A stretch of DNA of 64,000 nucleotides from a virus (lineage: Duplodnaviria; Caudoviricetes). The notes below the pieces were generated by a model that was given only the letters and a program-made list of their open reading frames with translations, did not search any database and was not told the DNA's origin. Each line of letters begins with the position of its first letter. Position 1 is the stretch's first letter. The stretch is taken from positions 1-64,000 of the IMG/VR virus record IMGVR_UViG_3300021256_000079, one strand, 5' to 3'. The translations under genes were made by a program, and so were the position numbers. This document shows, piece after piece, positions 58,763-61,561 of the stretch.

Positions 58763-61561
58763 ATGGATTACCAAGATCGGAATGATGTGTACATGGACGA
58801 ATTATATTTGTCCGATAGTGCATATCTCGAACACTATGGAACGCCTCGGCATTCTGGACGTTATCCATGGGGTTCTGGCGACAATCCTTATCAGAGACAT
58901 GCCGATTTTCTGGCAAATTACTATAAATTGAAGGATAAGGGTTTGAGTCCAACCGAAATTGCTCGAAGTATGAACATGACCACATCGGTTCTTCGTGCTA
59001 AGGTCTCCTATGCTAACGATACTCTTAGGAGAGAAAGAGCTTCTCAGGCAATGAAGCTCAAAGAAAAGGGATATTCTAATACTGCAATAGCCAAAAGAAT
59101 GAATTTGCCTAACGAAAGCTCAGTTCGAGCCCTTCTTAAAGAGAAGAGTGATATTCGTGCTCAGCAGACAGAAAATTTGATGAAAGTTCTTAAGGCAACA
59201 GTTGAGGAAAAGAAGTATGTCGATGTTGGTGGTGGTTCCGAACTTCGGCTTAATGTCAGTGAGACAAAATTGAAGAATGCATGTGTTCTTCTTGAAGAAG
59301 AAGGATATAAAATAACCACATTTAAAACACAGCAAGCTGGAACTCCTTATAAAACCACGATTAAGGTGCTTACAAAGGCTGATGTTCCGAGATCGGAAAT
59401 CAACCAACATCGTGGTGATATTGCTATTCCTAATTATTATTCAGAAGATCATGGTTTTACACTTAATAAAGTCGAGAGACCTGTTCCAGTAGATGGAAGC
59501 CGCATTTATATTCGCTATGGTGAAGAAGGCGGAAAAGAACGGGATGGCACAATTGAACTTCGTCGTGGTGTGGAAGATCTTGATTTGCATAATGCATTAT
59601 ATGCTCAGGTGAGAATTGCCGCAAAACAGCCTGGAACCGAAGGTGATGGAACACATTACCTTAAAGGCATGGCCTTATATGGAGACGATAAGGATTTTCC
59701 TCCTGGAGTCGACATTATATTTAACACCAAGAAACCTAAGGGAACAGAGATATTTGGTAAAGACACAGACACATCAGTGTTGAAACCAATCAAAGAAACA
59801 GCCGATCCTGACAACCCATTCGGAGCAACCATCAAAGACGATGTAGATCTCATAAAAGCACAGAGACATTATATTGGTGCCGATGGTGAAAAACATCTTT
59901 CAGCACTTAATATTGTCAATGAGGAAGGTAACTGGAACGAATGGTCTAGAACTCTTTCTAGTCAGTTCTTAGCAAAGCAGAATCCTTCACTTATTCGTAG
60001 TCAGCTTAAAGAAGCATATGATATGCGCAAAGAAGAATTCGATGAAATTGGTAAAATGACCAATCCGGCTGTTCGTAAGAAATTATATTCTTCATTCGCC
60101 GATGACTGTGATTCAGCAGCTGTTCATCTTAAAGGTGCTTCAATGCCAAGACAAAGGAGCCAAGTTATATTACCGATGCCTTGGCTAAAGGAAGACGAAG
60201 TGTATGCTCCAAATTTCCATGATGGAGAAACTGTAGTTCTCATTAGATATCCTCATTCTGGTACTTTTGAGATCCCGGAATTGAAGGTTAACAATCGAGA
60301 TCCTAAAGCTAAAGAGATATTAAAGACTCCCGATGGAAGAGATGCCATGGATGCTATAGGTATTCATCCAGCAGCTGCACAAAAACTGTCTGGTGCTGAT
60401 TTCGATGGCGATACAGTTTTGGTTATTCCTAACAATGATCGAAGAATTCGTAGTACACCTCTTATGGAGTCTCTTAGAAACTTCGATCCTGACATGTATC
60501 AGCTTCCACATGATGCACCTAAGGTTGATGCTAAGCATGGCTTTCATAAGCAGCAAGAAATGGGTAAGGTTTCTAACCTTATTACAGACATGACTATTAA
60601 AGGTGCCGATCTTGAAGAGATAGCTCGTGCTGTTAAACACTCAATGGTAGTCATCGATGCTGAAAAGCATCACCTTGACTGGAGAAAGTCATTTGAGGAC
60701 AATGGTATTGCTGAACTTAAGACTAAATACCAAGGTAGAGCTGATGCTGGTGCATCTACTCTTATTTCCAGATCTAAGGGTCAAGCACATCCTTTGGATC
60801 GAAAGCTCTTAACTAATCCTAAGCTCATGACTAAGGAGCAAAGAGAACGTTTCTACAACGGTGAGAATATTTATGTAGAAACTGGACGAACCAGAATCGA
60901 TAGGAAGACAGGCAAAGAGGTACCAATTCGCATATCCTCCACGAAGATGGCTGAAGCCAAAGATGCTTTCGAACTATCATCTGGCACTCTTCAGGAAACA
61001 ATTTATGCAAATTTTGCAAATCGTCTTAAGAATTTAGCAAATGAAGCTAGAAAAGCTGCCTTATTTACAGAGCCTGACAAGTACAATCCTTCTGCAAAGA
61101 AAGCATATGCTGCTGAAGTCGACTCTCTTAACAAAAAGCTATATTTGGCAGAGCTTAATCGTCCTCTTGAAAGAAAAGCACAGCTTCTTATGGCCCAGAA
61201 ACTTCGTGCATATATGCAAGAGAACGACGATATGACAAGCGATGAAATAAAGAAGCTTAGAGGTAGACTTATCAAAGAAGCCAGAGCTTCTGTTGGCGCA
61301 AAAAAAGATCCTGTAGAGATTACAGATCGAGAATGGGAAGCCATCCAAGCACATGCTGTGTCATATAATACACTGACAAAAATTCTTAATAACAGTGACA
61401 TGGACCATATTAAGCAACTTTCCATGCCTAGAAACACTCCTGTCATGTCTGAAGCTAAGATTGCAAGAGCCAAGAACATGATGAATCAGGGTCGAACTAG
61501 AGAAGAGGTTGCTGAAGCCTTGAATGTCTCCATATCTACACTGCTCAAAGCTATGCTGTAA
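58763..61561 (+). CDS. Single-subunit two-barrel (YonO/cellular RdRP-like) DNA-dependent RNA polymerase with HTH domains
   Basis: LIRYPHSG and LSGADFDGD catalytic motifs; MGKVSNL...HSMVVIDAEK helices; two N-terminal and one C-terminal HTH. Confidence 0.85.
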   Translation: MDYQDRNDVYMDELYLSDSAYLEHYGTPRHSGRYPWGSGDNPYQRHADFLANYYKLKDKGLSPTEIARSMNMTTSVLRAKVSYANDTLRRERASQAMKLKEKGYSNTAIAKRMNLPNESSVRALLKEKSDIRAQQTENLMKVLKATVEEKKYVDVGGGSELRLNVSETKLKNACVLLEEEGYKITTFKTQQAGTPYKTTIKVLTKADVPRSEINQHRGDIAIPNYYSEDHGFTLNKVERPVPVDGSRIYIRYGEEGGKERDGTIELRRGVEDLDLHNALYAQVRIAAKQPGTEGDGTHYLKGMALYGDDKDFPPGVDIIFNTKKPKGTEIFGKDTDTSVLKPIKETADPDNPFGATIKDDVDLIKAQRHYIGADGEKHLSALNIVNEEGNWNEWSRTLSSQFLAKQNPSLIRSQLKEAYDMRKEEFDEIGKMTNPAVRKKLYSSFADDCDSAAVHLKGASMPRQRSQVILPMPWLKEDEVYAPNFHDGETVVLIRYPHSGTFEIPELKVNNRDPKAKEILKTPDGRDAMDAIGIHPAAAQKLSGADFDGDTVLVIPNNDRRIRSTPLMESLRNFDPDMYQLPHDAPKVDAKHGFHKQQEMGKVSNLITDMTIKGADLEEIARAVKHSMVVIDAEKHHLDWRKSFEDNGIAELKTKYQGRADAGASTLISRSKGQAHPLDRKLLTNPKLMTKEQRERFYNGENIYVETGRTRIDRKTGKEVPIRISSTKMAEAKDAFELSSGTLQETIYANFANRLKNLANEARKAALFTEPDKYNPSAKKAYAAEVDSLNKKLYLAELNRPLERKAQLLMAQKLRAYMQENDDMTSDEIKKLRGRLIKEARASVGAKKDPVEITDREWEAIQAHAVSYNTLTKILNNSDMDHIKQLSMPRNTPVMSEAKIARAKNMMNQGRTREEVAEALNVSISTLLKAML

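Follow-up and report, generated by a model that had tools for sequence, protein, structure and literature searches.

A Predicted Single-Chain Two-Barrel RNA Polymerase with Built-In Helix-Turn-Helix Modules and a Co-Occurring Promoter-Like Motif in a Phage Genome

Results

In this work, we analyzed a 64,000-nt stretch of phage DNA (positions 1 to 64,000 of the IMG/VR record IMGVR_UViG_3300021256_000079; hereafter, the window), which carries at 58763..61561 (+) one uninterrupted open reading frame (ORF) for a protein of 932 amino acids (aa), a member of PHROG 4291. The data suggest that this protein, designated P0001, is a single-chain RNA polymerase (RNAP) with a two-barrel core and helix-turn-helix (HTH) modules at both ends, and that a 26-nt promoter-like motif accompanies polymerases of this type. 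We consider it probable, though by no means certain, that P0001 is a DNA-dependent enzyme which initiates at these private promoters and thereby expresses its own operon as well as the early and middle genes.

The antisense ORFs within 58763-61561 are short and unsupported, and the Rfam and tRNA scans of 55-64 kb gave no matches. An earlier inspection of the letters alone (hereafter, the sequence-only reading) had described polymerase and HTH motifs in this ORF. Both the ORF and all the motifs were found in place: RYPH at residues 495-498, DFDGD at 546-550, MGKVSN at 600-605, VIDAEK at 630-635, the N-terminal HTH cores at 62-67 and 105-110, and a C-terminal HTH at about 896-929. The alignment of 60 homologues of P0001 (43-54% identity, several bacterial phyla) clearly showed that R495, P497, D546, D548, G549 and D550 of the second barrel are conserved in 60 out of 60 sequences, the whole S543-D550 segment being invariant except for the nearly invariant F547. 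In the first barrel, invariance extends to D261-G262, Q282-x-R284, K301-G302 and K341, and after the second barrel to M600, G601, N605, L606, D609, M610, D632, K635 and H636. Given this family-wide invariance, the motifs are more than a chance resemblance. One might still suppose that P0001 is a catalytically dead relic of a polymerase which now serves only as an HTH transcription factor, as the annotation of most database records as an HTH protein would imply; however, the preservation of catalytic and nucleic-acid-binding residues in 60 homologues across several phyla makes this scarcely credible.

The AlphaFold2 model of P0001, built with a 60-sequence alignment, had a mean predicted local distance difference test (pLDDT) score of 84 and a predicted template modelling (pTM) score of 0.74, and was poorly defined only at residues 1-47 and in two loops. 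A Foldseek search of the PDB with this model returned QDE-1 (E 1.3e-8) and RDR2 (E 6e-7), followed by P74 gp62 and P32 gp64 of Thermus phages (E 3-4e-5) and, at lower ranks, by P23-45 gp96 and the largest subunits of cellular RNAPs. The VIA-align comparison, which took in 48,161 chains, placed ZmRDR2 at the top (Z 15.1, 445 residues aligned, model residues 241-886), with QDE-1 (Z 12.8, 373 residues, 241-767), P74 gp62 (Z 9.8, 361 residues, 240-771), P23-45 gp96 (Z 8.5) and phi14:2 gp66 (Z 7.3, 354 residues) also matched. The largest subunits of Pol I/II/III and of the archaeal, bacterial, vaccinia and African swine fever virus enzymes were aligned over residues ~448-751 with Z 9.4-11.1, and isolated double-psi beta-barrel domains fitted the second barrel with Z 10-10.6 (root-mean-square deviation ~1.8-2.2, 77-84 residues within 463-567). 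The alignments to RDR2, QDE-1, P74 gp62 and phi14:2 gp66 all start at residues 239-241.

These comparisons, together with the invariant columns, delimit the first double-psi beta-barrel, which is beta-subunit-like, at residues ~241-390 (59483..59932, +). The second, beta-prime-like barrel occupies residues 459-567 (60137..60463, +) and carries R495-x-P497 and the metal loop D546-x-D548-G-D550, the R-x-P motif standing about 50 residues before the DxDGD loop, as in the two-barrel superfamily. It is followed by long helices resembling the bridge helix and trigger loop (residues 596-670; 60548..60772, +), which include MGKVSN and VIDAEK and are modelled as H596-612 and H617-636. Because of the Foldseek and VIA-align matches, residues ~240-770 of the predicted structure can be regarded as a two-barrel RNAP core with the beta-like barrel first and the beta-prime-like barrel second. 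The fold search, the model and the conserved catalytic loop thus bear out the double-psi beta-barrel fold which the sequence-only reading had proposed to check by structure prediction against YonO and QDE-1.

Solved polymerases were out of reach for P0001 by sequence alone. The single sequence found no match among PDB sequences, and the family profile found HTH proteins only, plus a very weak match of the P23-45 tape-measure RNAP at DFDGD (E 0.68). In the BFVD fold search, P0001 matched other phage models named as RNA-dependent RNA polymerases (RdRPs), P23-45 gp64 and crAss-like proteins; YonO of SPbeta was absent from the top 50.

The invariant residues of the first barrel deserve separate consideration. 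In the QDE-1 structures, metal B is attributed to D709, while the residues ascribed to the nucleoside triphosphate and the RNA 3′ end are Q736, R738, K743 and K767 (PMC9508822); the same paper calls the Q736-x-R738 pair specific for polymerases of RNA interference (RNAi) and lists Rpb2 D837, K979 and K987 as reference residues beside the QDE-1 set (PMC9508822). Judging by order and spacing, D261, Q282-x-R284 and K301 of P0001 may be equivalent to D709, Q736-x-R738 and K743/K767, respectively. This resemblance, along with RDR2 and QDE-1 as the top structural matches and a weak Pfam RdRP match (PF05183, residues 538-606, 15.1 bits vs. the 23.8 threshold, E 0.0095), would also fit a true RdRP that makes double-stranded or antisense RNA for regulation or counter-defence. 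Nevertheless, QDE-1 itself is also DNA-dependent (PMC9508822), gp66 and P23-45 gp64/gp96 are equally RdRP-like but transcribe DNA, and the several HTH modules, the private DNA motif and the double-stranded DNA phage context all point to DNA templates for P0001. We therefore hold an RNA-templated function to be improbable.

Apart from the catalytic core, P0001 possesses candidate DNA-binding modules at both ends, as the sequence-only reading had maintained and as the models, the fold search and Pfam HTH_7 now confirm. The N-terminal tandem HTH pair covers residues 49-127 (58907..59143, +; helices H49-58/H63-69/H74-101 and H106-112/H118-125), and both HTHs are modelled as helical HTH units. A separate model of residues 48-240 reached a pLDDT of 96.5; the Pfam HTH families at 88-134 were all under threshold. 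Next to the pair lies a winged-helix-like unit (residues 155-206; 59225..59380, +) with a helix-helix-strand-strand pattern and a weak Pfam HTH_11 match at 162-185; residues 134-220 resemble the extended winged helix of TFIIIC tau138 (Z 7.4-7.8). The C-terminal helical DNA-binding region (residues 855-932; 61325..61558, +) contains an HTH_7-type HTH at 896-929 (E 9.1e-8, 32.6 bits vs. the cut-off of 23.8) and was also matched by HTH proteins in the family-profile search of PDB sequences.

The sequence-only reading had further proposed that these HTHs are sigma-like, and this label turned out to be indistinguishable from other HTH types. The second HTH (residues 83-134) aligned with the HTHs of DeoR, LsrR and SorC at Z 8.0-8.8 and with sigma region 4 (SigF, sigma-28, sigma-E, SigW) at Z 6.2-7.3; sigma region 4 and the HTHs of LuxR/GerE, ParB/KorB and resolvase together spanned Z 6-7.3, so that sigma region 4 scored no better than DeoR, LuxR, ParB or resolvase, all these HTH and winged-helix values being in the middling range by the tool's own scale. 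The Pfam Sigma70_r4 matches to P0001 were below threshold, and no region-2-like sigma domain for a −10 element was found in the protein. According to the models, the arms are ordinary HTH and winged-helix folds.

Repeat finding and a position weight matrix (PWM) scan for the motif CGC-N7-ACA-N5-TATAATG (consensus CGCGTAAGAAACAY-N5-TWTAATGA) revealed 22 copies on the + strand of the phage genome and none on the − strand, against 0-1 copies in each of ten shuffled genomes. One copy (57716..57741, +, PWM score 29.5) stands before the endonuclease-exonuclease-RNAP operon, and 21 further copies within 18741..45671 (+) precede early and middle genes; the structural-gene region has none. Most copies come after a terminator hairpin with its T-run and end 2-3 nt before the Shine-Dalgarno sequence; therefore, if transcription began 7 nt downstream of the hexamer, as with sigma-70, its start would fall in the ribosome-binding site. 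The invariant boxes at positions 1-3, 11-13 and 19-25 follow one another at intervals of about one helical turn, and the two upstream ones precede the hexamer by 6 and 15 bp, which is not the −35 distance. A sigma-70 promoter and terminator scan of 56-64 kb gave no excess of promoter-like sites (16 vs. 21.3 ± 4.3 in shuffles). A search for RNA sequencing runs covering 27400-33000 listed none.

The same motif was found in other RNAP-bearing phages. The Arthrobacter phage Mudcat has seven copies in the same register, one of them (55497-55521) before its endonuclease-exonuclease-RNAP operon. With at most one mismatch to CGCNNNANNNACANNNNNTANAATG, the motif occurs in the Gordonia phage Kenosha (7 copies), the Streptomyces phage Bing (5), the Microbacterium phage Count (11) and the oral phage D_HF4_2 (4), always forward and never in reverse; the reversed pattern used as a control was absent from these four and occurred once in Mudcat. 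Lactococcus phage P092, which bears the most divergent RNAP (36%), keeps a truncated motif, with TTTTACAYACCCTATAATGA present and the CGC box absent. At 80 loci in bacterial genome assemblies, we counted 131 forward copies vs. 1 reverse copy and none in shuffles, and in 70 of 79 loci a copy was situated 600-1600 nt upstream of the RNAP start. The pooled consensus was CGCgaAAAAaACAtnccCTtTTATGA, with T at position 20 in 61% and at position 22 in 74%; most Lachnospiraceae copies read TTTTAT and so lack the −11 A of the sigma-70 −10 element. No copies at all were found in SPbeta or in three Arthrobacter phages that share the host but lack the RNAP, and in five cultured host genomes (22.5 Mb) 31 of the 32 exact matches were clustered at RNAP prophages on the RNAP strand.

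Taken together, these comparisons indicate that the motif is private to phages bearing a P0001-type polymerase, irrespective of the host phylum. Since it co-occurs with the RNAP across phyla and is absent from host chromosomes, the polymerase probably reads the 26-nt motif via its own HTH arms. In another scenario, P0001 is an active DNA-dependent RNAP but the motif is recognized by a different phage factor or by the host RNAP, while P0001 transcribes, for example, the late genes, as YonO does. On the circular map, the late module comes directly after the gene, the late genes without a motif of their own would need another signal or read-through, many copies in actinophages and in the present phage have a perfect TATAAT within reach of any primary sigma, and prophage induction requires a host-driven route to the first RNAP molecules. 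On the other hand, the TTTTAT predominance in Lachnospiraceae and the box spacing described above do not suit a sigma-70 promoter, the motif is the same with hosts as distant as Streptomyces and Lachnospiraceae yet missing from host chromosomes, and the RNAP is the sole DNA-binding protein common to the whole phage group (Koert et al., bioRxiv 10.1101/842583). On balance, this scenario seems unlikely, albeit less so than an RNA-templated function, and we prefer recognition of the motif by the polymerase itself.

Several motif copies are immediately followed by a stable hairpin (32857-32935, 34513-34594, 36051-36131 and 57742-57811). In three of these sites a T-rich run precedes the ribosome-binding site; the structures look like 5′-leader attenuators or start-proximal elements located at the extreme 5′ end of the presumed transcripts.

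The profile phrog_4291, named "RNA-dependent RNA polymerase", matches P0001 with E=0 over residues 17-930 (profile positions 7-904 of 909). By tblastn, the family is present in 250 cultured-phage records at 36-49% identity, 249 of them covered over at least 80%; the hosts are Arthrobacter (95 records), Gordonia (55), Streptomyces (54) and Lactococcus (13), as well as Curtobacterium, Microbacterium, Rhodococcus and Faecalibacterium. Most of the 250 GenBank records are labelled "helix-turn-helix DNA-binding domain protein" and a few "RNA-dependent RNA polymerase", just as the sequence-only reading had anticipated in warning that such proteins are easily mistaken for plain HTH proteins. An exhaustive HMMER search yielded 2368 clusters (50% identity), of which 865 had E<1e-30, and the best 150 were all 869-1062 aa long. 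Among the GTDB species genomes, at least 358 relatives were detected; many of these sit in large contigs of chromosomal DNA from cultured Hungatella, Blautia, [Ruminococcus] torques, Cuneatibacter, Enterocloster and Lachnospira and are therefore prophages.

The interpretation is not new, and the protein kind is known from computation. Koert et al. (bioRxiv 10.1101/842583) already reported this very protein with an HTH region at each end, the DxDGD loop and an HHpred match to Pfam RdRP at 95.7%, suggested that it might be active as an RNA polymerase, and made it the signature gene of a cross-phylum phage group. Ruprich-Robert and Thuriaux (PMC2919709) mentioned YonO-like proteins in five firmicute phages and cited the genome paper of Lactococcus phage 1706, which may be one of these five. 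Literature searches with the N-terminal tag or promoter motif strings brought up no relevant paper. What the present work adds to the 2021 Koert paper is the host-genome control for the motif, its placement before the RNAP operon in 70/79 loci, the TTTTAT predominance, the Q-x-R signature putatively shared with RNAi polymerases and the 88-aa companion protein described below.

The whole phage genome is a single 94,754-bp contig with ends overlapping by ~122 bp, and therefore represents a complete, circularly assembled genome. The P0001 gene closes an operon that begins with a VRR-NUC-type endonuclease gene (57811..58146, +; phrog_93, E 1e-12), which Mudcat, Kenosha, Bing, Count and D_HF4_2 also have at this place, and continues with a DUF2800/Cas4-like exonuclease gene (58076..58747, +; Pfam PF10926, E 9e-8), which is so annotated at the same place in relatives. 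It is followed by a gene for a conserved 88-aa protein of unassigned function (61615..61881, +; phrog_4303, E 4e-23), 30-41% identical to the product of the gene after the RNAP in all six relatives compared, which span three host groups and include Lactococcus P092. This protein has 191 homologues and is 66-89% identical within a clade of related ~90-100-kb phages. A role as a polymerase cofactor and a function at the genome end are both candidates; the predicted complex of the 88-aa protein with RNAP residues 48-932 scored 0.00, under the mark, which is uninformative either way.

The order endonuclease-exonuclease-RNAP-small ORF at the right genome end, by the packaging genes, holds in the five inspected phages with nucleases; in Lactococcus P092, a cell-wall hydrolase gene instead of the nucleases precedes the RNAP gene, and the small ORF still follows it. 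In nearly all the inspected tblastn rows the RNAP gene is at or near the right end of the record, with exceptions such as the Streptomyces phage Psst2. Since the RNAP is always the last in an operon with the two nucleases, in the vicinity of genes for a helicase, a single-stranded DNA-binding protein and a primase-polymerase, one could imagine that it serves DNA replication by making primers or by opening the origin through transcription. However, the phage already codes for a 1471-aa primase/helicase-polymerase fusion, and 22 co-oriented motifs before genes and ribosome-binding sites fit promoters and not origins, which leaves a replicative role very improbable; promoter-directed transcription remains our preferred function. 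The 1471-aa protein (51267-55682, +), previously read as a helicase-primase-PolB fusion, has a DUF5906 (D5-type helicase) domain by Pfam.

Other features of the genome are as follows. A 275-aa protein (48271-49098, +) matches phrog_4291 at positions 535-664 only (E 4.9e-26); it is a partial, non-catalytic copy of the stretch that follows DFDGD. A non-coding gap of 485 bp (61882-62366) separates the packaging genes from the RNAP module, and the genome ends of cos-ended relatives lie at the equivalent of this gap. It holds a G/C-rich inverted repeat at ~62050-62085 with no T-run after it and may be a packaging site. A tyrosine integrase gene (27998..29002, −; Pfam PF00589, E 5e-25) and the close RNAP relatives inside Lachnospiraceae/Clostridia chromosomes render the temperate lifestyle assumed by the sequence-only reading plausible; a Pfam scan of ten minus-strand ORFs, aimed at a repressor, gave no matches.

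Mudcat has a G+C content of 45% vs. 63% in its host (Klyczek et al., PMC5513430). It shares the polymerase and the motif with the present gut/rumen phage of ~40% G+C, which fits a lineage with little host dependence in gene expression.

Upstream of the HTH pair, P0001 has a conserved disordered motif, L-x-HYGT-x-R-x-SGRYPWGSG-xx-PYQ (residues 16-47; 58808..58903, +; pLDDT <50), where G26, S31, G32, G37 and G39 are invariant and H24, R33, Y34, S38 and Q44 nearly so in the 60 homologues. Past the window, at 64841-74831, ten proteins encoded around terL and before the portal gene share the N-terminal tag Y-L-x-H-Y-G-I-K-G-Q-K-W-G, which corresponds to DUF7211 (PF23847) by Pfam in both tagged proteins scanned (E 3-5e-8). 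Their C-terminal parts are unrelated, one showing weak transglutaminase-like matches, and the same tag is present on Mudcat gp7 (twice) and gp9.

We also considered a true DUF7211 tag on the P0001 N-terminus, but this was not supported: the 25-residue Pfam model gave no match at E<=0.1, and the likeness is limited to the first 6-9 residues. A hidden Markov model of the ten tags weakly touched 31 of 60 RNAP N-termini (E 0.02-1), while reversed controls gave 8 matches at E>=0.26. It is a rather doubtful possibility that the HYG motif directs P0001 into the capsid, together with the DUF7211-tagged proteins, for injection with the DNA.

Discussion

In the mechanism that we propose, the beta-like barrel would hold the RNA 3′ end, and the beta-prime-like barrel would carry the Mg-binding D546-x-D548-G-D550 loop. 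The two HTHs and the winged helix at the N-terminus, along with the C-terminal HTHs, would most likely substitute for a sigma factor by docking the enzyme on the 26-bp promoter, where the CGC, ACA and TATAATG boxes, being ~10 bp apart, would be exposed on one face of the DNA. The transcript would begin at the last box or immediately behind it. In this manner, the 22 putative promoters could drive the early and middle genes and the RNAP operon itself without a host sigma factor, and transcription continuing beyond the RNAP operon and over the genome end might reach the late genes, as the circular map permits. Our data show the predicted fold with its catalytic residues and HTH modules, and the joint occurrence of polymerase and motif, whereas the DNA-dependence, the reading by the HTHs and the start site are what we infer.

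Several points weigh against this mechanism. The closest solved structures, RDR2 and QDE-1, are RNA-dependent enzymes, and databases name the family accordingly; our literature searches found no biochemical test of any family member, be it of activity, template preference or transcription start. The link between the HTH arms and the motif comes from their co-occurrence only, strong as this comparative support is, and another phage factor, or the host RNAP aided by one, could read the motif. Finally, the position of the RNAP operon behind its own motif creates a bootstrap problem, above all at prophage induction, because prophages cannot rely on injected enzyme.

How single-chain two-barrel RNAPs find promoters without a sigma factor is poorly understood. 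The family described here offers a catalytic core of ~530 residues with HTH arms and a 26-bp candidate promoter, and its phages include ones cultivable on Arthrobacter, Gordonia, Streptomyces, Microbacterium and Lactococcus. If the pairing of the enzyme with the motif is true, it would provide a minimal model for two-barrel transcription initiation and a candidate system for orthogonal expression, perhaps usable in different bacterial phyla, and it would bear on the phage origin of eukaryotic RNAi polymerases. It seems to us an evenly balanced matter whether we deal with a sigma-independent one-polypeptide system in which enzyme and promoter have been kept together between Actinobacteria and Firmicutes, and which possibly represents the closest prokaryotic kin of the eukaryotic RNAi polymerases. 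In any case, hundreds of GenBank labels reading "HTH DNA-binding protein" or "RNA-dependent RNA polymerase" probably misname the function.

Comparison with Known Systems

The nearest relatives of P0001 are in the actinophage supercluster (Arthrobacter AM/AU, Gordonia DJ, Streptomyces BI), in Lactococcus phages P092 and P1046 and in Faecalibacterium phage FP_oengus, with which it has full-length homology, the domain order and HTHs at both ends in common. The cultured PHROG 4291 phages also share with the P0001 phage the promoter-like motif and the gene order. The P0001 phage differs in being a 94.7-kb, circularly assembled phage of the gut/rumen type with an integrase, whereas the cultured actinophages are 43-114 kb, an integrase-free status being documented for the Arthrobacter phages of clusters AM/AU only. 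Nothing sets the P0001 protein itself apart from the PHROG 4291 family.

The eukaryotic cellular RdRPs (Pfam PF05183), maize/Arabidopsis RDR2 and Neurospora QDE-1, match P0001 best in structure, both in the two barrels and in the helices behind them. They share with P0001 the barrel order in one chain and the DxDGD loop, and the Q-x-R pair in barrel 1 of P0001 may correspond to Q736-x-R738 of QDE-1. In contrast to P0001, the RdRPs are devoid of HTH DNA-binding modules, and its sequence similarity to them is below the Pfam threshold. Unlike them, P0001 comes from a double-stranded DNA phage, and DNA-templating is most likely for it.

YonO, the DNA-dependent single-chain two-barrel RNAP of the Bacillus prophage SPbeta (PHROG 8308; Forrest et al. 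2017, PMC5467207), resembles P0001 in being one chain (839 aa vs. 932 aa) with a two-barrel core from a temperate Firmicutes phage, and their R-x-P-H and D-x-DGD motifs align (RSPH/RYPH, DNDGD/DFDGD). At the same time, YonO matches phrog_8308 with E=0, whereas P0001 does so with E 8.9e-5 and over residues 470-609 (140 residues) only; BLASTP of the catalytic stretch (E 1.1) and hhalign (probability 1%) gave no significant similarity between the two proteins, and the HTH regions of P0001 were left unaligned in the pairwise, profile and PHROG comparisons. We therefore rejected membership of P0001 in the YonO family, as there is no significant pairwise or profile similarity over the YonO length. 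P0001 belongs to a separate family, one that is nearer to RDR2/QDE-1 than to YonO, the phage enzyme named in the sequence-only reading.

The non-virion RNAPs of Thermus phages (P74 gp62, P32 gp64, P23-45 gp64), the virion RNAP gp96 fused to a tape measure and gp66 of the crAss-like phage phi14:2 are single-chain two-barrel RNAPs of phages which are RdRP-like but transcribe DNA. The structural matches of P0001 (~240-770) to P74 gp62, gp96 and gp66 have Z values of 9.8, 8.5 and 7.3, respectively. These enzymes show no detectable sequence similarity to P0001 and have no fused HTH modules. Moreover, the virion proteins gp96 and gp66 have their genes in the midst of structural genes, whereas the P0001 gene belongs to the replication module. 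Along with YonO (PMC5467207) and QDE-1 (PMC9508822), phi14:2 gp66 and the P23-45 RNAPs set a precedent for DNA-templated activity in structurally RdRP-like enzymes.

As a functional analogue, one may consider the T7-type RNAP with its 23-bp promoter. Its right-hand, Pol I-like fold is unrelated to the two-barrel fold of P0001, but in both cases a single polypeptide is paired with a private promoter of ~25 bp repeated in the genome, an AT-rich element lies beside the presumed start, and the polymerase gene is part of the same circuit.

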